64,000 bases of DNA from Bifidobacteriaceae bacterium (lineage in GTDB: Bacteria > Actinomycetota > Actinomycetes > Actinomycetales > WQXJ01): assembly GCA_031272885.1 (NCBI GenBank), contig JAISSX010000043.1:9851-73850 (forward strand). The letters run 5' to 3'. How positions within the stretch are numbered: position 1 is the stretch's first letter; each line of letters opens with the position of its first letter. The notes under the pieces are model-generated. The model made no database searches. It was not told the DNA's origin and saw only the letters and a program-made list of their open reading frames with translations. Below, piece by piece: positions 7,376 through 22,209 of the stretch. The translations under genes were made by a program, and so were the position numbers.

Positions 7376-8077
7376 TCACGGCGTGTCGGAAGCGACACGC
7401 GCCACAATGCCGCCCTGACGGCCCGCTTTGGGCCCTTGGACGCGGTAGGAGTAGTAGCCGGGCGACGTGGCGGTGCAGACCTTGACGTCTGTGACGTGCT
7501 CCAGGCCCAGGCTTGTCAGTTGCTGCACGGCCGAACCGGCCAGGTCCAAGTAGGTTTGGCCAAGACTGGTGCGCATCACCCGGTGGCCGGCCGCGGCGGC
7601 CGGCCTGGCCACGTCCTCCCCCACTTCGTAGCAGCGGCCGCAGATGCCGGGGCCCACCGAGGCGTACAAGCCGGCCGGGGTAGCCCCCGCCGCCACCAGT
7701 TCTTCCACAACCCGGGGCAAGATGCCGCCCAACAGGCCGCGCCAACCGACGTGAACGGCTGCAACCAGGCCGGCCGCGACATCGGCCATAAGGACCGGCA
7801 GGCAGTCCGCCGTACGGATGACCAGGGCCACCCCGGGCAGGCGGGTGGCGAGGGCGTCACCGTGGCCGGCCACGGTGACCTGGGCGGTGGGTACGGCATC
7901 AACCCAGATCAGGTCGGTGCCGTGGACCTGGTCGGCAAAGACGGTGGGCACGCCAAGGTTGTGGGCCAAGGTGAAACGGCCGGCCATGGTGCCCAGGTCA
8001 GGTTCCGTGCCGGTGAAGAACGCCGGGCCGGGGAAACCGTCCGCGCTCGGGAACCGCCCTAGTCTTCCTTCAGCCAA
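7376..8077 (-). CDS. pgeF: Polyphenol oxidase/YfiH family peptidoglycan editing factor (start uncertain)
   Basis: [27 protein letters not shown] and YSYR motifs; downstream of ftsZ. Confidence 0.9.
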
Positions 8078-9372
8078 TCCGGCACATCCAGCTCTTCCGG
8101 CTTGCGGGCCAGGCGCTCATGGCGGATGGTGTCGTAGATCGACCCGGCCGGCTGGACCGGCACGGCCGCCGTCGGCACGTCACCCTCATCCACCCCCTTG
8201 GGCGGGGTGACCACCGGGGCCGACTCGGCCGTGGTGTCGGCCCCCGGAACGGGCACCGGGGCCGGCTCCGACAACCGGGCGGCCAGGGCCTGCAGGCTGG
8301 GCGGCGCGGCGGGGAGCGTCATCGGGCGCGGGGTGGGCACGGACACCGGCGGGATGGCGATGGGCGAAGAACCCGTGGCCGGCAGTACCGAAGCCTGAAC
8401 CGGCGCGGGGGCCGGCGTGGGCTTCGGCGTGGGGTCGAAGCCGGCCGCGATCACGGTCACGCGCACCTCGTCGCCAAGGGCATCGTCGATGATCTGGCCG
8501 TAGATGATGTTGGCGTCCGGGTGGGCGGCCTCTTGCACCAGGCGGGCGGCCTGGTTGATTTCCTGCAGGGCGATGTTGGACCCGGCCTGGATGCACAACA
8601 ACACGCCCAAGGCGCCGTCGATCGAAGACTCCAGCAGTTGCGAGTTGATGGCCGCCTCCGTGGCCTTCAACATGCGGTCCTCGCCGGAGGCAAAACCGAT
8701 GCCCATCAGGGCGCTGCCGGCGCCCTTCATAACCGACTCGACATCGGCAAAGTCGACGTTGACCAGGCCCGGCGTGGTGATCAGGTCGGTGATGCCCTGC
8801 ACACCGCTGAGCAGCACCTGATCGGCCGCCCGGAAGGCGTCCATGATGGTGATGCCCGGGTCACTGATCTGCATCAGGCGCTCATTGGGGATCACAATCA
8901 GCGTGTCCACCTCTTGGCGCAGCTTCTCGATGCCGGCATCGGCCTGGGCCTCGCGGCGCCGGCCCTCGAAACCGAACGGACGGGTCACCACGCCCACCGT
9001 CAAGGCGTCCAGCTCGCGCGCGATCCGTGCCACCACTGGGGCACCACCGGTGCCAGTGCCGCCGCCCTCGCCGGCGGTGACAAACACCATGTCCGCGCCC
9101 TCCAGGACCTCGCGGATCTGCTCCACGTGGTCTTCCGCCGCCCGGCGGCCCACCTCGGGATCAGCCCCGGCGCCCAGGCCGCGGGTCAGTTCACGGCCCA
9201 CGTCCAGTTTGACGTCCGCATCCGACATCAACAGCGCCTGGGCATCCGTGTTGATGGCGATGAACTCCACGCCCTTGAGGCCCGATTCAATCATCCGGTT
9301 GACGGCGTTGACACCGCCACCGCCAATGCCAACCACCTTGATCACAGCCAGGTAGTTCTGGGGTGCCGCCAC
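8059..9372 (-). CDS. ftsZ: Cell division protein FtsZ
   Basis: GGGTGTG tubulin signature; likely GTG start ([15 protein letters not shown]) at 9372 behind GGAGG; C-terminal LDVPDWL. Confidence 0.98.
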
Positions 9373-9664
9373 TGGAGCCTCCGATGTGTCGAGTGACATG
9401 GGTATACATCAATGACGTTAGGCCAGCATCCCCGCCGAAACAATCACCACGGCCGCGTGTTGGCCTAACAGGCGATTCATGTTTCCCCGCCTGGAGCGGG
9501 AGTAGCGGGGGTGGCGGGGGTGGCGGGGCTAGACGTTACGCTGGGCCGGAAGTTGCCCTCAGGCCGACGGCCTGTGGGCAACCTGGGAACGAAGCGAGGT
9601 GCTCGTCGACCCCGGCGCCCGCACCATTGCTGTGCCTGGCCCTGCCACGCGCGCTCGGGCCCTT

Positions 9665-9886
9665 GGGTAGAGACTTGTTGCAGTCCGGAGGCGTCATCGA
9701 CCCCTTGGGTAGAGACTTGTTGCAGTCCGGAGGCGTCATCGGCCCCTTGGGTAGAGACTTGTTGCAGATTTTCGGGCCTGGAAGAGCAACATCTCTCTAC
9801 CCCATGCCCGAAACCGGCCGATCAAGTGCAACAAGTCTCTACCCGGCGATCGTCCTGGGCTCCGGTGGTGCAACAACTCTCTACCC
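9665..9886. repeat. Palindromic array A: 18-bp motif, 3 forward then 3 inverted copies, 42-bp period
   Basis: GGGTAGAGACTTGTTGCA at 9665, 9707, 9749; reverse-complement variants at 9785, 9827, 9869. Confidence 0.9.
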
Positions 9887-9916
9887 GGATGCCCGATAGC
9901 GTCCGCCCCGGCGAAC

Positions 9917-10176
9917 CGGAGAGACTTCCGGCGGTCAATCAGACCCAATGCGGCCATCCGGAGAGACTTCCGGTAGTTCTGAAGCCCGATCCGGCCAGGT
10001 GGAGAGACTTTCGGTAGTCAGACAGGCCCAATCCAGCGATCCGGAGAGACTTCCGGTAGTTCTGGAGCGCCAGAACTACCGGAACTCTCTCCGCTTGATC
10101 GATCTGGGCCCGAAAACTACCGCAAGTCTCTCCGGATCGGGTTTGACGGGTGCTGGAACAACCGAAAGTCTCTCCG
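9917..10176. repeat. Palindromic array B: 20-bp motif, 4 forward then 3 inverted copies, 41-42-bp period, variable spacers
   Basis: Consensus CGGAGAGACTTCCGGTAGTT at 9917, 9959, 10000, 10042; inverted variants at 10074, 10115, 10157. Confidence 0.9.
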
Positions 10177-10306
10177 CTTCGTTGACCAGGCCGCTGGCTG
10201 GGCACGTCTCCGCGACCGCTTTGCGGTCCGCGTCGACACGCGCGGGTTAGCCGGAGCCGGGCCAACGACACCGCCCCAGGCGCTACCACAAACCGCCTGT
10301 CACACT

Positions 10307-10620
10307 GTCGAAACTGCACTGGCAGGGAACCGGACGCCATCGGACACGGGCCTGTGACCTGGACAAACGCGCAGGCCCGGAGGCTTGGCGGGGCTCAGGT
10401 CGTGTCGAAACTGCACGGATTTACGGACCGGCGCAAGTCCGCGCAATTCTGCACTGGCACGGAACCGGACGTCGTCGGACGCGGACCTGTGACCTGCGGA
10501 AACGCTTCCGCTCCGAAGGTGGGTAGGGCTGAGGTCGGGTCGAAACTGCACGGATTTACGGACCGGCGCAAATCCGAGCAATTCTGCACTGGCAGGGAAC
10601 TGGACGCCATCGGACGCGGC
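10307..10620. repeat. Tandem repeat C: 135-bp unit, about 2.3 copies
   Basis: CTGCACTGGCA.GGAAC.GGACG at 10314, 10449, 10584; GTCGAAACTGCACGGATTTACGGACCGGCGCAA at 10404 and 10539. Confidence 0.9.
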
Positions 10621-10635
10621 CCAGGGACGGAGTCA

Positions 10636-10955
10636 TCCAATCCGCCAAATCCGGTGTTTCGGGTCATCGAGTCCGCTTGTTTCGGTGGGGTTTGCCGTCG
10701 AGTCCATCAAATCCGGTGCTTACGGGCTCGGCCGAGACAGTGAAAGCCCAGGTCACAGGGTTGAGGCCGGATCGGGCAACACCGGAAAAAGCGGACTCGA
10801 CGCGAAACCACGCCAGATCTGGCGGACTCGATGACCTCAAACACCGGATCTGGCGGACTCGATGACCTCAAACACCGAATCAGGCGGACTCGATGACCGC
10901 AAACACCACAATTAGCGGACTCGATGACCCAAGACACCAGAATTGACGGACTCAA
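10636..10955. repeat. Palindromic array D: 10-bp core, 31-bp period, 3 left and 6 right copies around a central CAGGTCA motif
   Basis: TCGAGTCCGC-like at 10636, 10667, 10698; GCGGACTCGA-like at 10791, 10822, 10853, 10884, 10915, 10946. Confidence 0.9.
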
Positions 10956-11056
10956 CAACCGTCAGGTGGTCGAACCACCCCCGCCCAAGCCGCTGGGCGC
11001 GGCCAGCCGTACCAGGTTGGGGCACCGCGCGTGCTCGGTGTCGGAGAGGTACAAGA

Positions 11057-11093
11057 TGTCATCCCCGGGGTGCAAATGAAGCCTGGGATGACA
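11057..11093. repeat. REP-like hairpin
   Basis: TGTCATCCC...GGGATGACA inverted arms. Confidence 0.55.
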
Positions 11094-11185
11094 CACACTG
11101 GTTGAAGGGATGCGGAGGTTCCCCGTCGTGACCAGGGACGATGCTGAGGTTCCTGGTCGTGACCGACGCCTGCCCGTTGGGCGGG

Positions 11186-11357
11186 CGAGATGCCGGGTCA
11201 AGCGCGGGATGAAGAACAACCAAGCCAGGTATGACCCTTTAGGGGAAGGCCGCGCCGGCGGGGTGCCCGCGGGGCCGAGATACCGGGTCAAGCGCGGAAT
11301 GAGGAACAACCAAGCCAGGTATGACCCTTAAGGGAGAAGGCCCCGCCGGCGGGGCGC
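11186..11357. repeat. 90-bp tandem duplication carrying a REP-like palindrome (GAT.CCGGGTCAAGCGCGG.ATGA)
   Basis: Units start at 11186 and 11276; a related palindrome occurs at about 19373-19396. Confidence 0.8.
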
Positions 11358-11370
11358 CGGCGGGGCCTTC
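11336..11370 (-). terminator. GC-rich hairpin downstream of YDG protein 1
   Basis: Perfect 15-bp stem GAAGGCCCCGCCGGC/GCCGGCGGGGCCTTC. Confidence 0.75.
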
Positions 11371-11397
11371 GGTTAGGGCAGGGTCAGGATTCAGCCG

Positions 11398-14322
11398 TCA
11401 GTTCTGCTCCGGGTCGGTGGCCGATGCCGGGGCGTCAGCCACGGCATCGGCTGCGGCACCGGCTTCGGCCGGCTCAACCACGGGCTCAACCACCGGCCCG
11501 GCATCGACCGGCTCAGAACCGGCCGGATCAACCGCCGGCTCTGCCTCAAGCTCGGCCTCACCGGCCGGGTCCGGCTCCGGCTCACCCTCGTCCCCGCCAA
11601 CCGGCAGGGCATCGGGCGCCACGTCCTCTTCGCGAGCCGCCTCGTCAGGCGCCGACACGGCATCGGCCACCGGCTTGACGTCTTCCTGCGGGTCCGATGG
11701 ATCACCCACCGGAACCACGTCATCGGCCACCGGCTCGTCAACCGGCCCACCAACAGAACCCAGCGGCGCGGTGTTCGCCCCAACGTTAACCGGCTCCAGG
11801 ATCACCATGATGACGGTGACGTTCGCGGAGGGACTGTTGTAGTTGTTCACCCGCGGTGTGCCGTCTGAATACCGCGTGGAGTAGACTCCGAAGCCCTTTG
11901 CAGTGCCCTGGTAGGTGCCGGGATCGGCACTCGGATAGGCCGAAATGCTCCCGGTGTCCAGAATCAGGTACAGCCCGCCCACATCCACCGGCGCGAGGCC
12001 GTCCTCCGAATGGCCGGTCCGCACAATTGAGGCGCCAGACAACGACGTGTTGCCGTCCCAGGCCTTGGTGACCGTGTACTCCACGGTGGCGCTCCAGTCC
12101 CGCTTGGCGATGGATGCCGTGGCAGTGGGCGCGCCAGCCAGCTTGTAGTTGCCGGCCGCCGTCCCTTCCAACTGGTAGCCCCCAAGGAGCACCGGCAGGT
12201 CATTGCCGGCATACCCCTTGGTGAAATAGGCCCACGCTTCGCTGGTGTCCAGGGTCACGTTGTCGTTGCCCACGATGCCGCTCGCGTCGAGCGAGCCCCA
12301 GTCACTCATCGTGACCGAAGGAGTACCGTCATAAACCCGGTCCTGCGCCACGGCGCCAATCACCGACAACGGCTTCGGCGTGATGACCGCGGTCATGGTG
12401 AACGTTTCAGGCAGCTCGTAGTTGCTCGCGCTACCCTCCGTAAAGGAGGCGATCAGGTCCGCACCGGTGACGCCAGACCCAGCATCGTGACTGCCGGCGT
12501 TAGCGTCGACGGACCAGAGGCTCGGGAACACATAACCGACCGTGAACTGATCGTTGCCAACCAGACCGCCAACAGTCACCTGGCGTTCATTCAATACCCA
12601 ATGAAGCAAGCCGTCGCCGTCATACACCTTGGTCAAGGTCAGGTCGATGGTGAGCGGCTTGGGCTGGATGACATCCTGGCGGGTGAAGGTAGACGCCAGG
12701 ACGTAGTTGTGGCCACCGTTGTCGCTGCCGCCTGTAATCTGCAGCAAGCCGCCATTTGGCTCACCTTCGGAGAGGTAGGTGCCGACCGCCGTCGAACTGG
12801 CATACCAAGGCACTGGCAGACAGCTCACATCCAAGGTGTCGCCGCTGACCAGGCCGTCCGTCACCTCGACCCGCTGATCGTAGCTGGGCGACATGAACGA
12901 GTAGCCGTCGTAGAACTTGGTCCGGATAACCTTCGCCTGGACTTCCTTCGGGTCGATGCCGGCCTGCAGCGGCTCGACCGCCAGACGGTAGTTGGCGGCA
13001 TCGTCACCCGTCAGCGACAGCCCGGTCACGGTGACCGGCTTGTCTTCGCCGGCGTTCTTCGTGTCGAACTGGCCGATGGCGTCCCCCACCAGGTCAACTT
13101 CGTCCGGCTCGATGACGCCCACCAGGTCGCCGTCACCGGTCACATCGGTGGTGGTGTCGCCGTCGTAGGTCTTGTTCTGGGCCGTCAGGCCGGTCACGGT
13201 CACCGGCTTCTGGGTGATGTTGCCAACCGGTTGGGTCACCGTGAAGTAATACTTGTGGGCGTCGGCGCCGGTCAGGCTGAACTGGCCTGGGTCAACCGTG
13301 ACGCCGATCTCGTTGCCGGCGTTCGGGCTGGCAAACTCGCCTTCCAGGGTGGCCTGGACGGTTTCGACCGTGACGTCGTCGCCGTCTTGGATACCGTCCA
13401 CGAACTCGCTGGTGGAGGCGAAGACGATGCCGTCCGCGGCGGTGGCGCCATCGTACGTTTTGTCTTCTACCTGCGGGTTCAAGGTCAGTTCGTAACGCTG
13501 GTCAACCGCTTCGACCGTGTAGGTCAGGTGGAACGAATCCACAGCCGTATTCGGGTCGATGGTGGCGGTCAGGGTGCCGTTGACATGGCCGGTGCCGTCC
13601 GGGTTGTCAACCGACATGACCGGGGCCAGGTCACCGGTGAGTGGCTGCCCGTCCACCGCGAAAGTGATGCCGGCGGGGGCGTCGATCCGGCCTTGCACCC
13701 CGAAGTAGGTGGACGCGCCCGGCAGGTCAACCGTGAAGTTGGCCTGGCCGTTCAGGGCTTCGGCTTTGTCGATGGTGATGACAATGTCACCGTCGGTTTC
13801 GACTGTGCCCGCCGTGCCGGCCGGTTCGGCCGCCCAGGCGGTGAACGAACCGGCCACTGCCAGGCCGGCCGCGCCGGCCACGATCAGGGCCGTCTTGGGC
13901 AGGAAGGTCTTGCCGTCGTTCTTGCGCTTGGCGCCCCACAGCAGCAGGCCACCGGCCGCCAGCGCGCCCAGGCCGAAGGCGCCCAGGCGCGGGTCGAAGC
14001 CCGTGTAGGGCAAGCTGCCGGTGGTGCCGGCCGTGTCGGCAGTGTCCGTGCCGGCAGTGTCCGTGCCGGCCGGGTCGGTGCCGGCCGCGCCGCCGCTGAC
14101 GCCGGCATCAGGGTCATTGGTGTCAGTGATAGTAGTGCCGGCGTTCTGGCCGGACGTGTCGCCGCCTTGGGCGGGTTGTTCTCCGGGTGGGGTCGAATCG
14201 ATGACGTTGACCACCACGTCAAGGTCTTGGCTGGTGCCGTCGCCGGCGGCTGTGGCTGCTTGCGCAGTCAAACCGACCAGACCAGCGGCCGCCAGAGCTA
14301 GGCCTAACAGTTGCTTCCTCAT
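11398..14322 (-). CDS. YDG-repeat surface protein 1 with N-proximal LPYTG sorting signal and second signal peptide
   Basis: Signal peptide; LPYTG at 13999-14013 followed by TM and KRK; second hydrophobic segment ending TAWA; about 6 (K/R)xYDG-type repeats; acidic tail. Confidence 0.85.
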   Translation of the reverse strand: MRKQLLGLALAAAGLVGLTAQAATAAGDGTSQDLDVVVNVIDSTPPGEQPAQGGDTSGQNAGTTITDTNDPDAGVSGGAAGTDPAGTDTAGTDTADTAGTTGSLPYTGFDPRLGAFGLGALAAGGLLLWGAKRKNDGKTFLPKTALIVAGAAGLAVAGSFTAWAAEPAGTAGTVETDGDIVITIDKAEALNGQANFTVDLPGASTYFGVQGRIDAPAGITFAVDGQPLTGDLAPVMSVDNPDGTGHVNGTLTATIDPNTAVDSFHLTYTVEAVDQRYELTLNPQVEDKTYDGATAADGIVFASTSEFVDGIQDGDDVTVETVQATLEGEFASPNAGNEIGVTVDPGQFSLTGADAHKYYFTVTQPVGNITQKPVTVTGLTAQNKTYDGDTTTDVTGDGDLVGVIEPDEVDLVGDAIGQFDTKNAGEDKPVTVTGLSLTGDDAANYRLAVEPLQAGIDPKEVQAKVIRTKFYDGYSFMSPSYDQRVEVTDGLVSGDTLDVSCLPVPWYASSTAVGTYLSEGEPNGGLLQITGGSDNGGHNYVLASTFTRQDVIQPKPLTIDLTLTKVYDGDGLLHWVLNERQVTVGGLVGNDQFTVGYVFPSLWSVDANAGSHDAGSGVTGADLIASFTEGSASNYELPETFTMTAVITPKPLSVIGAVAQDRVYDGTPSVTMSDWGSLDASGIVGNDNVTLDTSEAWAYFTKGYAGNDLPVLLGGYQLEGTAAGNYKLAGAPTATASIAKRDWSATVEYTVTKAWDGNTSLSGASIVRTGHSEDGLAPVDVGGLYLILDTGSISAYPSADPGTYQGTAKGFGVYSTRYSDGTPRVNNYNSPSANVTVIMVILEPVNVGANTAPLGSVGGPVDEPVADDVVPVGDPSDPQEDVKPVADAVSAPDEAAREEDVAPDALPVGGDEGEPEPDPAGEAELEAEPAVDPAGSEPVDAGPVVEPVVEPAEAGAAADAVADAPASATDPEQN

Positions 14323-14372
14323 GGCTCGCTTTCTTGTAGATGGAAACTGCCATTACCCACAACTGCGCCTTG

Positions 14373-14448
14373 GCGGCCAACATTCCCGCCAGCGAACAGA
14401 TATTCCTACAGGCGAACACACCGCCACTACCAGGGCAAAGAAGCAGCC
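14373..14448 (-). promoter_or_regulatory. Upstream block conserved between YDG genes 1 and 2
   Basis: Closely matches about 18511-18588; GCGAACA direct repeats 20 bp apart in both copies. Confidence 0.6.
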
Positions 14449-14471
14449 CCGGAACCGTCTCCTGGAGCCAA

Positions 14472-14510
14472 GAAGGCCCCGCCGGTGCTTGGTGCACCGG
14501 CGGGGCCTTC
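14472..14510 (-). terminator. GC-rich hairpin downstream of YDG protein 2
   Basis: Perfect 17-bp stem GAAGGCCCCGCCGGTGC/GCACCGGCGGGGCCTTC. Confidence 0.78.
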
Positions 14511-14523
14511 GGTTAGGGCTGGG

Positions 14524-17500
14524 TCAGGATTCAGCAGTCAGTTCTGCCTCCAGGGCGGTGGGCGATGGCGCGGCCTCGGCCACGGCATCGACCGCCACAC
14601 CGGTTTCGGTTGGCTCAGGGTCGACCGACTCAGGTGCCGGCTCGGTGGCGGCCGGCGCCGGGTCAGCGCTGCCCTCCCCCTCCGGCACGGCATCGCCTTC
14701 CGGCTCTGGATCCGGCTCGCCCTCGTCCCCACCAACCGGCAGGACGTCAGGCTCCACATCCTCTTCCCGGGCCGCCTCGTCAGGCAACGAGGCGCCATCG
14801 GCCAACGGCTTGACGTCCTCCTGCGGGTCCGACGGATCCCCCGCCGGCACCACGTCATCGACCACCGGCACGTCCGCCGGCGCCAACGTCAAACCCATCG
14901 GCGTTATCGCAGCCAGGCTCTGCACCGGGGCCGGATTGATGATCATGGTCAGGGCGAAGTAGAAGGTGGGCCAGTTGTAAGAGTCGTAAATGAAACTGCC
15001 GTCCGGGCGGTAGGTCCCCCACACCGTGCAGTGCTCAACGCCGCCTTGGTAAGTGCCGACCTCGGGACTCGGGAACGGGAAGATGTACTTGAGCTCGAGG
15101 TACCCCCACATCCTGCCTTCATCCGCCGGCGCCAGGCCAGAGGTGGAATGGCTGGTCTGAACCAGTTCAGCGCCATCCACCGACGTGTTGCCGTCGTATG
15201 TCTTGGTAAGGGTGTAGGCCACGTTGATGGTCCAATCCCGTTTGGCGATCGAGGCCGTGGTAGTGGCGGTGTCCGCCAACTGGTAGTTGCCGGCCGCAGT
15301 CCCTTCCAGCTTGTAACCCGTCAGGGCCACCTGCCTGTCGTTACCGGCGTACCAGTTGACGAACCGAGCCGTCACGCCGCTGGTCACCAAGGTCACATCA
15401 TCGCTGCCGACAACGCCACCGTCTTCCAAGGTGCCGCGGTTGGTAATCAGGTTGGTGGCCTCATCGGTGCCGTCATAAACCCGGCCGTTCACGGCGGCGC
15501 CAACCACCGACAAGGGCTTCCGCGTGATCACCTCGGTGTGAAGGAAGGTGGACGCTAGAACGTAGTTGTTGGTTGCGTTCTCACTGCCACCCACCACCCG
15601 CAGATCGATGTCCGAAGGACCGGACCAAGTGTAGGAACCGACGTTGGGTGAACTCCCCCAACCTCCGGCGATGCAATCCACCTGCAAGGTGTCGTTGCCG
15701 ATCAGGCCAGACGCCACCTTGACCTGCTGGTTGTCGGTCGACCGGAGCCAAATGCTGCCGTCGTAGACCTTGGTCCGAGTGACCTCCACCTTGACTTCCC
15801 TTGGCTTGATGTCACCGGTCAACACGGCGCTGTTGCTCACCAACCGATAGTTGCCGCTGGCGGCGCCTTGCAGCGAAATACTGGACACGTCAACGCTCTT
15901 GCCGTCACCGGCGTTGGCGTCCCTGAACTGGGCTGCCTGCGCCGATGCCGCTATGGAAACCTGGCCGCGATCCTGATCGAACAGGCCGTTGATCTCCGCG
16001 TTGGCCGTCACCAAAGTGGCGCTGGTAGTGCCGTCATACGTCTTGTTTTCAGCCGACAACCCCGACACAGACACCGACCGTTTCGTGATCTGGCCAGTGA
16101 ACAACGTGTAAGAGTCATCCAACCTGTAGTTCTTCGCCTGATCACCAGTCAAAGACAAACCCGTATAAGTAACCCACTTGTTGGAGCCCACGTTCTTGTC
16201 GTCAAACGTCGCTACCGGGCTACCAGTCAACCCCACAGTCTCGCCCTTGACCACACCAGTCAACGACGGTGAACCCTGCAGGGACGCAACCCTGGTCCCG
16301 TCATATGTCTTGGACACCGGCGTGTAGCCATCGATGCCCAAAGACTTCTGCCAAATGGTCCGCTGGAACGTCAACGTCTGCAACGCATAGTTACCAGCAT
16401 CGTCACCCTCAAGAGACAGGCCAGTCACAGTGACCGTCTTGTCCTCACCCGCATCCTTGGTGTCGAACGTGCCCACTGCGTAGCCTTCCACCGTCACCTT
16501 GTCGTTCGTCACCACACCATCCAGACCGGGCAGGCCGAACATCGAAGCCTCCCGGGTGCCGTCATAGGCCCGGTTCGACACTTGCACACCAGTCACCGTG
16601 ACCGGCTTCTTCGTGATATCAGCCCGCAGAGTGAGTTGCTCCAACTCATAGTTGCCGGCGTCATCGCCCTCCAACGACAAACCAGTCACAGTGACCGTCT
16701 TGCCCGTAGCGGCCTGCTTGTCACCGAACGTGCCCTCAGGGGTGCCCACCAGGTCGACGTGGTCTTGCGGGACCGCACCCACCAAGGCTGCGTCACCATC
16801 CAAACTGGCTGTGGTGCCGCCGTCATAGGTCTTGCTGTTGGCCCGCAGGGCATCAACCGTGACCGGCTTCTTCGACACATCCGCACCGGACTGCGGCAAA
16901 GTCAAGAAATAGTTGTGGGCGTCCGGGCCATCAAGCTCCAAACCACTGACCGTGACCGGCTTGTTTTCACCCGCGTTCTTGTCATCGAACTGGCCGACAG
17001 CGTGACCCACCAGACCAACCTCGTCCGGTTCGATCACACCCACCAGGCCGCCATCACCCAACACCGTTGCGTCGGTGCCACCGTCATAGACCCTGTCATC
17101 AGCCTGCAAACCCGTAACCGTCAACTCGGCCGGGTCGATGACCGCCATGTTCGAATCAATACCTACCAGTTCATAGTTGCCGGCCTGGGCACCCACCAGG
17201 ACACCCCCTTCGTCGTCCCCAGACAGGACACACTCGGTGGCATGCTCACCCGCGTCCTCACCGTCAAGGTCTTCCGTACCGACATAGACACAAGCCACGC
17301 CATCAGACACCGCGACCTCGTCCTCACCGACAATGCCATCAAGAACCAGGCCACCCCGGTCTGCCCGGTTGTTACCGTCATAGGTTTTCCCGAACACCTC
17401 AGTCGTGGCCGTGACCGGTTTCGGTGTGATCCGGCCCTCCGGTTGAATGACCGTGAAGAAATACTTGTGGGCGTCCGCACCGGTCAAGCTGAACTGGGAA

Positions 17501-18459
17501 GGGTCCACCGTGACGCCGATGCCGCTGCCCGCGTTCGCGTCAGCGAACACACCCTCCAAGGAGTCCCCAGCCTCGACCGTCACCTGGTCGCCGTCTTGGA
17601 TACCGTCCACGAACTCTGCCGTGGAGGCGAACACGACCGTGTCCGTGGCGGTGGCGCCATCGTACGTTTTGTCTTCTACCTGCGGGGTGAGGGTCAACTC
17701 GTGGCGTTGATCAACCGCTTCGACCGTGTAGACGAGGTGGAACGAATCGACTGGCGTGTCCGGGCCGATCATCGCCACCAGGGTGCCCTCGACATGGCCC
17801 GTCGCTTCCGGGTTCTCGACCAACATGACCTGGCCTAGGTCACCCGTAACCGGCTGCCCACCCACCGTGAACTGGACACCCTCCGGGGCGTTGATCCGGC
17901 CTTGCAAACCAAAAAACGTCGAAGCGCCCGGCAGGTCGGCTTCGAAGACTGCCTGGCCGGTCAGGGTTTCGGCCTTGTCGATCGTGATAAGCAGGTCACC
18001 GTCCGTGTCGACCGTGTTGTTCTGGTCAATCGCCCACGACGTGAACGAACCAGCCGCGACCAGACCGGCCGCACCAGCCACGATCAACGCCGTCTTAGGC
18101 AAGGACCTTTTCCCGTTGTTCTTCCGTTTCACACCCCACAACAACAGGCCACCAGCCGCCATCGCCCCTAAACCCAGCACACCCAGACGCGGATCAAACC
18201 CCGTATAGGGCAGGGCCCCGGTCGTGGCCGAACCGCCCTCGCCCGTCCCAGTAGACGCGTCGCCGGCGCTGCTGGGGTTGGCGTCTTGACCAGACTTATC
18301 GCTATCCGGTTCGAGTTCTTCAGGTGGGGTCGAATCGATCACGTTGACCACCACGTCAAAGTCCTGACTGGTGGCGTCATCCGCAGCGGTGGCTGCCTGC
18401 GCGGTCAAACCGACCAGGCCCGCGGCCGCCAACGCTAGACCCAACAAATGCTTCTTCAC
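14524..18459 (-). CDS. YDG-repeat surface protein 2 with N-proximal LPYTG and second signal peptide
   Basis: Likely GTG start (VKKHLLGLALAAAG) behind AAGGGAG; LPYTG at 18199-18213; about 10 YDG repeats. Confidence 0.85.
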   Translation of the reverse strand: MKKHLLGLALAAAGLVGLTAQAATAADDATSQDFDVVVNVIDSTPPEELEPDSDKSGQDANPSSAGDASTGTGEGGSATTGALPYTGFDPRLGVLGLGAMAAGGLLLWGVKRKNNGKRSLPKTALIVAGAAGLVAAGSFTSWAIDQNNTVDTDGDLLITIDKAETLTGQAVFEADLPGASTFFGLQGRINAPEGVQFTVGGQPVTGDLGQVMLVENPEATGHVEGTLVAMIGPDTPVDSFHLVYTVEAVDQRHELTLTPQVEDKTYDGATATDTVVFASTAEFVDGIQDGDQVTVEAGDSLEGVFADANAGSGIGVTVDPSQFSLTGADAHKYFFTVIQPEGRITPKPVTATTEVFGKTYDGNNRADRGGLVLDGIVGEDEVAVSDGVACVYVGTEDLDGEDAGEHATECVLSGDDEGGVLVGAQAGNYELVGIDSNMAVIDPAELTVTGLQADDRVYDGGTDATVLGDGGLVGVIEPDEVGLVGHAVGQFDDKNAGENKPVTVSGLELDGPDAHNYFLTLPQSGADVSKKPVTVDALRANSKTYDGGTTASLDGDAALVGAVPQDHVDLVGTPEGTFGDKQAATGKTVTVTGLSLEGDDAGNYELEQLTLRADITKKPVTVTGVQVSNRAYDGTREASMFGLPGLDGVVTNDKVTVEGYAVGTFDTKDAGEDKTVTVTGLSLEGDDAGNYALQTLTFQRTIWQKSLGIDGYTPVSKTYDGTRVASLQGSPSLTGVVKGETVGLTGSPVATFDDKNVGSNKWVTYTGLSLTGDQAKNYRLDDSYTLFTGQITKRSVSVSGLSAENKTYDGTTSATLVTANAEINGLFDQDRGQVSIAASAQAAQFRDANAGDGKSVDVSSISLQGAASGNYRLVSNSAVLTGDIKPREVKVEVTRTKVYDGSIWLRSTDNQQVKVASGLIGNDTLQVDCIAGGWGSSPNVGSYTWSGPSDIDLRVVGGSENATNNYVLASTFLHTEVITRKPLSVVGAAVNGRVYDGTDEATNLITNRGTLEDGGVVGSDDVTLVTSGVTARFVNWYAGNDRQVALTGYKLEGTAAGNYQLADTATTTASIAKRDWTINVAYTLTKTYDGNTSVDGAELVQTSHSTSGLAPADEGRMWGYLELKYIFPFPSPEVGTYQGGVEHCTVWGTYRPDGSFIYDSYNWPTFYFALTMIINPAPVQSLAAITPMGLTLAPADVPVVDDVVPAGDPSDPQEDVKPLADGASLPDEAAREEDVEPDVLPVGGDEGEPDPEPEGDAVPEGEGSADPAPAATEPAPESVDPEPTETGVAVDAVAEAAPSPTALEAELTAES

Positions 18460-18684
18460 GGCTCTACTCCCTTGTGGTTGGACACTTCCGCCAGCCACAA
18501 CCACACCCCGGCAGCCAACATTTCCCCAAGCGAACACATATCCCTACAAGCGAACACGCCACCACCACCAGTGCAAAGAAACAGCCCCAGCCAGACAATT
18601 CCCGGCGTTGCAGGCGAGCACCTGGCTCCCCAATGCGTGTCGACGCAGCGCAGCGGAGGAGACGCGCCAGGCAAGCATGGCGCC

Positions 18685-18783
18685 CTTCGGGTTCCGGGGC
18701 TCCGCCCCGGAACCCGTGCGGGCAAGCACCACCTGGCAGCCACCCAAGGAAGATCACGCACCTTGGGTGCACCAAGCCAGGTG
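18685..18783. repeat. Two small palindromic elements
   Basis: CGGGTTCCGGGGCTCCGCCCCGGAACCCG hairpin and CACCTGGC..CACCCAAGG...CCTTGGGTG..GCCAGGTG inverted repeat. Confidence 0.6.
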
Positions 18784-18955
18784 ACCACATCCTCTAGGTG
18801 CGCGTTGACGTGTTGGGTGGCCGCCCGGCGCTGTTGGCAGGGTGAGAGGGTACGAACAGGAACCCTGACAGGCCATCCCAGAACAACCGAGAGGCCTGGT
18901 CGCCTTGGGGCACGCAACGGTCTCCACTGTTGGGCCCAACCTGCCCCATGGCTCA

Positions 18956-19181
18956 TCGACTCCGCCCTATCTGGTGTTTGCCGTCATCGAATCCGCCGAA
19001 TTCGGTGGGGTTTCGCACCGATTCCATCAAATCTGGCGTCGCCGAACCCAACCTAAGAAGTGAAACCCCAGGTCAGAGACTCGGGCCGGCATCGGGCAAC
19101 ACCGGAAAGGCGGACTCGACGCCAAACCCCGCCAGATCCGGCGGATTCGATAACCCGACACACCACAATTGACGGACTCGA
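18956..19181. repeat. Second copy of array D (3 left and 3 right copies, 31-bp period)
   Basis: Left cores at 18956, 18987, 19018; centre TGAAACCCCAGGTCA; right cores at 19110, 19141, 19172. Confidence 0.88.
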
Positions 19182-19243
19182 TCACCGCCAGCGCCAGGGT
19201 TCGTCCGATTGGGCCACTTGGCCCAGCCGGGCGGTTCCACGGG

Positions 19244-19312
19244 TTACGGGGGACGGTTCCGCGTAACGTGGGCGACGGGGTCGCCCGGGTTACACGGAAC
19301 CGTCCCCCGTAA
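19244..19312. repeat. REP-like inverted repeat with 24-bp arms (1 mismatch) and inner hairpin
   Basis: TTACGGGGGACGGTTCCGCGTAAC / GTTACACGGAACCGTCCCCCGTAA enclosing GGGCGAC-GGG-GTCGCCC. Confidence 0.8.
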
Positions 19313-19335
19313 TGCCCCCTGCGCCCTGCATGTGA

Positions 19336-19396
19336 AAGGCCCCGCCCGTGCTTGATGCACTGGCGGGGCCGAGATCCCGGGTCAAGCCCGGATGAC
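19336..19396 (-). terminator. Terminator-like hairpin plus REP-like palindrome downstream of YDG protein 3
   Basis: GGCCCCGCC.GTGC...GCAC.GGCGGGGCC followed by GATCCCGGGTCAAGCCCGGATGAC. Confidence 0.65.
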
Positions 19397-19419
19397 CTTA
19401 ATTGATGACCGGGATGACC

Positions 19420-22209: not shown

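Follow-up and report, generated by a model that had tools for sequence, protein, structure and literature searches.

The window analysed here is a 64,000-nucleotide stretch of Bifidobacteriaceae bacterium (assembly GCA_031272885.1, contig JAISSX010000043.1, positions 9,851 to 73,850). It contains three tandem minus-strand genes for long repeat proteins in which the sortase motif LPYTG stands near the N-terminus, followed by two hydrophobic helices and a large passenger. Structure predictions suggest that a short peptide ahead of the motif and a domain behind the helices belong together. We propose that sortase and signal peptidase excise the intervening membrane hairpin and that the wall-linked strand then holds the passenger non-covalently; for this reading as a whole we see about even chances. 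The fold comes from prediction; that the two cuts take place, how the chain lies in the membrane and that the passenger is retained we infer from the motifs and the precedent of the streptococcal Zmp proteases.

Architecture and conservation of the module

The three genes are intact open reading frames (ORFs) at the positions that the earlier note had given for them (11398-22209), as read from an ORF list with translations; their source is an uncultured actinobacterium. Each translation begins with a signal peptide and continues with QD(L/F)DVVV(N/H)VIDS, an acidic linker rich in G, T, A, D and E (39-87 residues, 0-1 K+R), LPYTG, a hydrophobic segment of 23 residues (helix 1), a basic loop with the consensus KRKN(D/N)GK(T/R)(F/S)LPK (net charge +4 to +6) and a second hydrophobic segment of 21 residues (helix 2), which ends in AWA, SWA and AFA in paralogs 1, 2 and 3, respectively. 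Behind helix 2 follow a conserved domain (ITIDKA ... EAVDQR), YDG repeats and an acidic tail. Translations, hydropathy and Pfam matches confirmed every element that the earlier note had listed, in the same order. In all three paralogs LPYTG, the 23-residue hydrophobic segment and KRKN stand in the order of a sortase substrate.

The LPYTG signal lies at residues 82-135 of proteins of 929-1311 residues, and 764-1194 residues come after it. Counted from the G of LPYTG, the small-x-small site that follows helix 2 ends after 56 residues in each paralog. No in-frame ATG, GTG or TTG was found in paralog 1 from LPYTG to the hydrophobic core of helix 2, and paralog 1 is therefore one polypeptide; an internal start giving two proteins was rejected for this gene on the same grounds.

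A hydropathy scan of the paralogs showed three hydrophobic segments, all N-terminal, with LPYTG between the first and the second. No C-terminal hydrophobic anchor was detected in any of the three, in agreement with the earlier note; the sole extra segment was a borderline 19-mer in the last domain of paralog 2. The final 130 residues of each paralog contain 34-37 D+E versus 2 K+R. By eye, the acidic tails (11401-11790, 14527-14916 and 19423-19812) have a common conserved stretch, DPSDPQEDV.P..D, and the extreme C-terminus reads G/N-A-N in paralog 3 and several relatives, which may be a terminal motif.

The YDG repeats matched PF18657 with E values of 6e-49, 4e-132 and 9e-42 in paralogs 1, 2 and 3 (164.6, 431.1 and 141.7 bits against a gathering cut-off of 25). 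At E <= 0.01 this was the only Pfam family found in the paralogs, and M26 and G5 domains were not found; the conserved domain behind helix 2 gave no match to a Pfam or NCBIfam family. Judging by the type of its repeats, the passenger is presumably an adhesin.

The source genome (2.95 Mb in 81 contigs, 95% complete) gave three matches above cut-off to the sortase family PF04203. One of them is a class E sortase (175.7 bits versus a curated cut-off of 160), and the remaining two are nearest to class F, under its cut-off. A regular-expression scan with hand-read output recovered nine conventional long ORFs in which LPx(T/S)G is followed by a hydrophobic segment and an R-rich tail, 1-11 residues from the C-terminus. 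These conventional signals use the same motif types as the paralogs, LPYTG among them. In this genome only the three ORFs of the window carry 764-1194 residues past the signal, and a divergent fourth member, P0014, carries 173. From this genome-wide comparison, the N-terminal sorting signal is beyond chance.

P0014 is the minimal member of the family: 389 residues, encoded outside the window (L029:518-1687, on contig C35 of G000). It starts with a signal peptide and the strand DLPVVVHVVDS, from which a 137-residue linker leads to LAATG; two helices and the domain come next, and the acidic tail is short. The gene is complete, and a Pfam scan found no YDG repeats in it. Its neighbours, an aldo-keto-reductase-like ORF, a small membrane protein and a peptidase-like ORF, seem unrelated by eye.

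A HMMER search with residues 1-289 of paralog 1 against 1.84 billion representatives returned 11 proteins at E <= 0.001, the query included. One match, P0013, is an unrelated protein that was hit through its own C-terminal anchor. Two others (P0008 and P0009) start within helix 2 and thus say nothing about the strand, and P0012 is truncated just before the strand; the matches other than P0013, P0008 and P0009 retain the layout. Among the 19 genomes of the source's family in GTDB, additional full modules were found in G016, G003, G005 (two), G010 and G014 (two, in tandem). The tandem pair of G014 (L014 and L027, contig C87, 10476-17570) has open frames of 2073 and 1914 residues, and since this genome also has neighbouring copies, tandem duplication seems recurrent in the family.

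When the scan was widened to the order (401 genomes in 24 families), seven matches at E <= 1e-10 were obtained, six of them within the source's own family (G000 included). The seventh (G247) covers profile positions 24-122 only and has an in-frame TGA; we take it as a doubtful likeness of linker or signal. A contig scan with a six-row alignment matched 118 stretches, of which one was confirmed, from a same-genus metagenome-assembled genome (MAG) labelled Bifidobacteriaceae bacterium. Two database members are likewise titled 'MAG: ... Bifidobacteriaceae bacterium' by NCBI. In the genomes searched, the layout with this protein family is, by sequence comparison, confined to one small family labelled Bifidobacteriaceae.

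Conservation was read from an alignment (A3) of 14 rows, which covers at least six genomes plus metagenomes and in which identity to paralog 1 falls to 26%. Invariant throughout are V36 and V40 of the strand, T107 and G108 of the motif, and D185, G192 and G225 of the domain. The motifs are LPYTG (four members), LPVTG (two), LPFTG (two), LPLTG, LPPTG, MPFTG, LALTG, LAATG and LVTTG; T and G are thus present in 14/14, L104 is L in 13/14 and M once, and at position 2 eleven members have P, two have A and one has V. The earlier note had named homologues without a conserved LPXTG as evidence that would count against its proposal, and since LxxTG is conserved across the 14 aligned homologues, the proposal is not refuted on this point. 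The linker varies from 3 to 137 residues, the loop after helix 1 has a net charge of +3 to +6 in all aligned members, and a small-x-small site, judged by eye in Ala-rich sequence, follows helix 2 in 14/14.

The reading frame across the junction is kept in the three diverged copies, in the fourth member on another contig and in five other genomes. An assembly or read-through artefact, against which the earlier note had already argued, was rejected for this reason; as far as these comparisons go, the junction is under selection and keeps its frame.

Strand and domain always occur together: among the 14 members, none with a readable N-terminus is without the strand. YDG follows the domain in every scanned member that reaches past it, and PF18657 was above cut-off in P0005, P0006, P0007, P0011 and P0012, with PKD after YDG in P0011 and P0012. 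A profile search for split forms (anchor or domain alone) found none among proteins of 30-95 residues, only P0010 among those of 96-644 residues, and four known members with no split forms at 565-2000 residues. P0010 is a partial record that ends soon past the domain and has no Pfam family. The absence of split forms is weak evidence, because only the 8000 candidates sharing most words were scored.

Features of the three paralogs (positions in the window; residues are those of the respective protein)
Feature	Position	Strand	Basis or remarks
Paralog 1, whole gene	11398..14322	-	974 residues, P0001; ORF list, translation; PF18657 YDG, 4 stretches
Paralog 1, putative signal peptide 1, about residues 1-25, ending ATA|A	14248..14322	-	read from sequence; hydrophobic 19-mers at 4-26
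Paralog 1, beta strand DLDVVVNVID, residues 31-41	14200..14232	-	AlphaFold2 strand, block pLDDT 91; V36, V40 invariant across family
Paralog 1, acidic low-complexity linker, residues 44-103	14014..14193	-	pLDDT under 50
Paralog 1, LPYTG sortase motif, residues 104-108	13999..14013	-	motif conserved across family
Paralog 1, hydrophobic helix 1, residues 109-131	13930..13998	-	hydropathy; model helix H111-134
Paralog 1, basic loop KRKNDGKTFLPK, residues 132-143, net +4, presumed cytoplasmic	13894..13929	-	
Paralog 1, hydrophobic helix 2 ending AWA, residues 144-164, putative internal signal peptide	13831..13893	-	cleavage inferred
Paralog 1, predicted beta-sandwich domain, residues 178-276 (ITIDKA ... 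EAVDQR)	13495..13791	-	AlphaFold2 strands 180-274, block pLDDT 81-95
Paralog 1, passenger with YDG repeats	11791..13494	-	Pfam
Paralog 1, acidic proline-rich tail, without anchor	11401..11790	-	last 130 residues: 34 D+E, 2 K+R, 21 P
Paralog 2, whole gene	14524..18459	-	GTG start; 1311 residues; identical to database protein P0004; YDG, 9 stretches
Paralog 2, landmarks	strand 18331-18366; LPYTG 18199-18213; SWA end 18031	-	
Paralog 3, whole gene	19420..22209	-	929 residues; YDG, 3 stretches
Paralog 3, landmarks	strand 22081-22116; LPYTG 21805-21819; AFA end 21637	-	

Predicted structure of strand and domain

Residues 1-289 of paralog 1 were modelled with AlphaFold2 from a 9-row alignment (model 1; mean predicted local distance difference test (pLDDT) 61.8, predicted template modelling score (pTM) 0.46). 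Residues 31-41 were assigned by DSSP to a strand (E) in a block with a pLDDT of 91. The flanks (1-26 and 58-111) were mostly under 50, the signal peptide, linker, motif and loop all being at low confidence, and residues 180-274 formed a domain of eight strands with a pLDDT of 81-95. Model 2 was made from 14 rows for a relative (L012) that is 34% identical and has a 7-residue linker (mean pLDDT 77.3, pTM 0.58). Here the strand lies at 25-36 (E, pLDDT 81-85), the helices at 53-77 and 84-99, and the domain has a pLDDT of 93-97.

Since a DSSP strand needs a partner and all other strands of both models are in the domain, the N-terminal strand appears to be paired with the domain. The pre-LPXTG peptide and the post-helix-2 domain are accordingly predicted to be parts of one beta-sandwich. 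With the strand inside the sandwich, the membrane hairpin would be an insertion in a loop of the domain, and the retention of the passenger, which the earlier model had left open, would be explained.

When the peptide (residues 27-62) and the domain (residues 165-289) were co-folded as separate chains, the interaction prediction score from aligned errors (ipSAE) was 0.58 (0.56, 0.59 and 0.58), while the best of three controls reached 0.01. At least 86% of contacts agreed between runs, and the partner pLDDT was at least 59. In the benchmark of this procedure the mark was reached by 58/80 solved complexes and 2/110 mismatched pairs; scores of <= 0.60 belonged to only 7/80 solved complexes, plus both passing mismatches.

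Fold searches with the two models had chaperone-usher pilins at the top of both lists. Model 1 matched 5n2b with Z 7.1 (root-mean-square deviation (rmsd) 5.3, 108 residues aligned), 8ehs (6.9), 4hji (6.5), 3f85 (6.5), 3f83 (6.3) and 3f84 (6.3), and model 2 matched 8ehs with Z 7.2 (rmsd 3.0, 98 residues aligned), 4hji (6.9), 3f85 (6.7), 3f83 (6.6), 5n2b (6.6) and 3f84 (6.6). The aligned ranges take in the N-terminal strand (from residue 23-29). Foldseek placed EcpA (3qs2_A) first with an E value of 7.7e-4, then PliG and carbohydrate-binding modules, with GOLD-domain proteins lower. The best feature score from the ESM Atlas was 0.77, below the bar of that tool, and was not used.

Proposed processing and rival readings

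According to our proposal, the product of each gene would be a single precursor that passes through the membrane two times. Its first signal peptide would export the short beta strand and the acidic linker; LPYTG and helix 1 would stop transfer, with the basic loop remaining cytoplasmic; and helix 2 would restart export, first of the immunoglobulin-like (Ig-like) beta-sandwich and then of the long YDG passenger with its acidic tail. Outside the membrane the N-terminal strand would insert into the sandwich as one of its strands. Sortase, most likely the class E enzyme of the source genome, would cut T107|G108 and link the strand's linker to peptidoglycan, and signal peptidase would cut after the small-x-small site behind helix 2 (after A164 in paralog 1). 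A 56-residue hairpin would thereby be excised and left in the membrane, and strand complementation would keep the passenger on the wall, its N-terminal end near the wall and its acidic C-terminus free.

The earlier note had also read two export signals in each gene, with sortase attaching a short stalk and an internal signal peptide exporting the passenger. Part of that interpretation held, in that the junction is real, the loop is basic (+3 to +6) and the genome has a sortase. It left the passenger unattached, and its claim of an undescribed display mechanism had to be given up, as the same layout is in print for the streptococcal Zmp/IgA1 proteases (PMC3518915).

Several results weigh against our proposal. 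Curated anchor models stayed under their cut-offs on the modules: PF00746 reached at best 14.7 bits versus 20, and TIGR01167 an E value of 0.21, with matches in 3/14 members. The motif of P0007, LVTTG, is unusual. One member (L013; 964-1572, G010) has no evident first signal peptide in its upstream open frame and another (L026; 1501-2130, G005) a poor one; in both, just 5 residues separate the strand from LPVTG, and a start-site problem, an error of the MAG or a real variant are possible causes. The small-x-small site is weak evidence, because it was judged by eye and such sites are frequent in Ala-rich sequence. On the structural side, the pairing of the strand was deduced from DSSP and pLDDT and not from contacts, the two AlphaFold2 runs are not independent, as their shallow alignments (9 and 14 rows) share most rows, and the co-fold was graded 'weak support' by the tool. 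All Z scores are below 8, a level that the tool calls common for unrelated beta-sandwiches, and we therefore treat the likeness to pilins as a lead; carbohydrate-binding module, GOLD and viral jelly-roll folds are likewise among the fold matches. A SpyTag-like isopeptide lock between strand and domain was set aside, because none of the strand's Lys or Asn residues is invariant and two members have R or L in place of K186. As a covalent lock is unlikely, retention would depend on non-covalent binding alone.

The most serious rival, which we nevertheless consider unlikely, accepts the cut at LPYT|G and keeps helix 2 as an uncleaved signal anchor. The G, helix 1, the loop and helix 2 would then hold the passenger in the membrane, and the wall-linked strand, still bound to its domain, would bridge wall and membrane. 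Across the family helix 2 has 18-24 residues and a mean hydropathy of 1.3-2.2, enough to span a membrane, and in model 2 the two helices are packed as a hairpin. The cleavage site in question is a small-x-small motif read by eye; it is, however, present in 14/14 members, and the mature Zmp enzyme reportedly begins 56 residues past its motif, a span equal to that of the paralogs (PMC9637739).

It is very improbable, in our view, that both cleavages take place and the strand then fails to hold the domain, in which case the YDG protein would be secreted and the wall peptide would have a role of its own or none. The weak grade of the co-fold and the lack of a C-terminal anchor are compatible with such a release, and IgA1 protease is described as able to leave cells (PMC7939560, PMC9637739). 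Release would, however, leave unexplained that conservation extends to both the strand (V36, V40) and the domain but not to the length of the linker, that the strand is modelled at a pLDDT of 81-91 inside the sheet, and that P0014, with 389 residues, has little besides strand, hairpin and domain.

Still less probable is an exchange between molecules, in which the strand of one paralog would fill the domain of another; short fibres or assemblies of several paralogs could result, much as in pili built by donor-strand exchange. In its favour, pilins that a donor strand completes head the fold matches, the strands of the three tandem paralogs are near-identical, and the Elr pilus is reported to show donor-strand exchange in Gram-positive bacteria. 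Against this, chains could not grow, because each twice-cleaved passenger would be without a strand of its own to donate. A search of the 95% complete genome for a WxL-type chaperone (PF06030, PF11797) gave none, and the aligned ranges fail to place the strand in the donor position.

The least probable reading, that no sortase uses the motif and that the two helices are a plain membrane hairpin anchoring an adhesin with a first domain completed in cis, has in its favour the missed cut-offs of the anchor models and the single LVTTG, and against it the near-invariant motif at the exact edge of helix 1 beside an otherwise unconserved linker, the ordinary C-terminal signals of the source genome with the same motif types, and the reported sortase dependence of the presence of Zmp-layout proteins on cells (PMC13604702).

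Relation to known systems and setting of the locus

With canonical C-terminal LPXTG substrates the paralogs share the pentapeptide, the hydrophobic segment and the basic residues in canonical order, whereas their chain goes on with a second helix and a whole passenger. An ordinary sortase substrate is fixed to the wall at its C-terminus; the paralogs would be oriented the other way round. Such a reversed layout is rare, and the pneumococcal IgA1 protease with its own paralogs has been recognised as a case of it for some twenty years. The founding paper on this layout, Bender and Weiser (2006), may already propose a non-covalent hold.

The Zmp layout starts with a signal peptide and an N-terminal LPXTG, followed by two hydrophobic segments and a further signal-peptidase site; it is shared by all four Zmps, and the second segment is possibly a second 'signal peptide' (PMC3518915). 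The enzyme is reported to be cleaved 56 residues downstream of the motif (PMC9637739), and ZmpB is described as tethered with its carboxyl end exposed (PMC7939560). ZmpB was reportedly depleted consistently in a srtA knockout, and at least one of two datasets also showed less IgA1 protease (PMC13604702). The accessible parts of PMC9637739, PMC7939560, PMC13604702, PMC7695701 and PMC6722419 contain no structural account of how a cleaved Zmp is retained.

The three paralogs resemble the Zmps (IgA1 protease/ZmpA, ZmpB, ZmpC and ZmpD; M26) in the order of signal peptide, LPXTG and two hydrophobic segments, and in a span of 56 residues, which reportedly runs from the motif to the mature N-terminus in the Zmps (PMC9637739) and runs to the end of the putative cleavage site in the paralogs. 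They are without sequence relation to them, and they have YDG repeats instead of M26 and G5, the passenger not being a protease. The Zmps belong to Bacillota and the paralogs to Actinomycetota. The paralogs also have a conserved strand and domain that are predicted to retain the passenger.

We read the donor-strand anchor ElrB of the enterococcal WxL pilus as the nearest functional analogue. The Elr/WxL pilus is reported to be assembled by donor-strand exchange and to be found only in Bacillota; ElrB, a 13-kDa LPXTG protein, is described as a predicted N-terminal strand donor to a WxL domain that is fixed by sortase (bioRxiv 10.64898/2026.10.17.759780). From what is reported there, the likeness consists in a short secreted peptide with an N-terminal donor strand, LPXTG, a helix and a basic tail; this peptide is a predicted complement to an Ig-like domain, itself incomplete, of a different subunit. 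ElrB is, however, a separate gene, whereas the paralogs have anchor and acceptor in one polypeptide, joined by the hairpin.

Membership of the WxL/Elr system was rejected, since the source genome gave no match to the WxL acceptor domain (PF13731) or to the DUF916/DUF3324 chaperone (PF06030, PF11797), control genomes being positive for the chaperone, and since NF053819 stayed under its cut-off. This model (EF2685/EF0750, the ElrB family) matched 2/14 members at E <= 1; weak hits came from the part before helix 2 of two members (E 0.031 and 7e-4; 14.8 and 20 bits versus a cut-off of 47). By descent the paralogs thus appear to belong to neither the Zmp nor the Elr family; if the models are right, they would combine the Zmp layout with the anchoring principle of ElrB in one gene. 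More specifically, we suggest, tentatively and with more doubt than confidence, that a beta-sandwich split by an excisable membrane hairpin gives rise to a two-chain complex in which a wall-linked strand holds an adhesin, and that it is a single-gene, chaperone-free counterpart of ElrB.

Two further comparisons were made. The chaperone-usher pilins CfaB, CooA, CS17, EcpA and FimA, the best structural matches of the models, have an Ig-like fold finished by an outside strand. The matches have Z 5.3-7.2 and 7-15% identity, and the family, from Gram-positive bacteria, is without chaperone or usher; its strand would come from the same precursor. The model NF033207 ('midcut-by-XrtH protein') has by its name a non-terminal sorting signal, which depends on an exosortase and not on a sortase; it matched one member at chance level (E 0.074).

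A limited literature search (exact wording, without supplements) found no such layout outside streptococci and no account of the layout by strand complementation. As far as the searches show, the paralogs are the first example outside Bacillota, and an unrelated protein family of one small lineage with a concrete, model-based mechanism of retention would likewise be new. Should the mechanism fail, they would still be the first Actinomycetota example of the Zmp-type layout.

If the proposal is true, Gram-positive bacteria evolved the coupling of strand complementation to sortase more than once, the Elr pilus, its counterpart with separate genes, having been reported in October 2026 (bioRxiv 10.64898/2026.10.17.759780). 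Strand and domain would then be a natural two-piece pair of tag and acceptor for N-terminal display on the wall, and the same principle could explain how the streptococcal proteases with N-terminal LPXTG are retained once their hairpin is cut out. The testable unit, a strand of 10 residues and a domain of 100 residues, is open to study with a peptide and a small recombinant protein.

The three paralogs are flanked by ftsZ (8059-9399) and ftsQ (22336-23391), with murC and murG farther out (names read from the translations), so that at 9400-22335 three genes plus about 2 kb of non-coding DNA are inserted from ftsZ to ftsQ within a division and cell-wall gene cluster. A conserved link of the gene family to this cluster was rejected: ftsZ and the family members are on separate contigs in G014, G010, G005 and G003, and because of this the placement beside ftsZ seems particular to the source genome. 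An Rfam scan of the window gave no matches, the repeat-filled gap between ftsZ and paralog 1 (9496-11367) included. This gap contains assorted tandem repeats with periods of 42, 41, 135, 31 and 90 bp, in 2-4.5 copies each.

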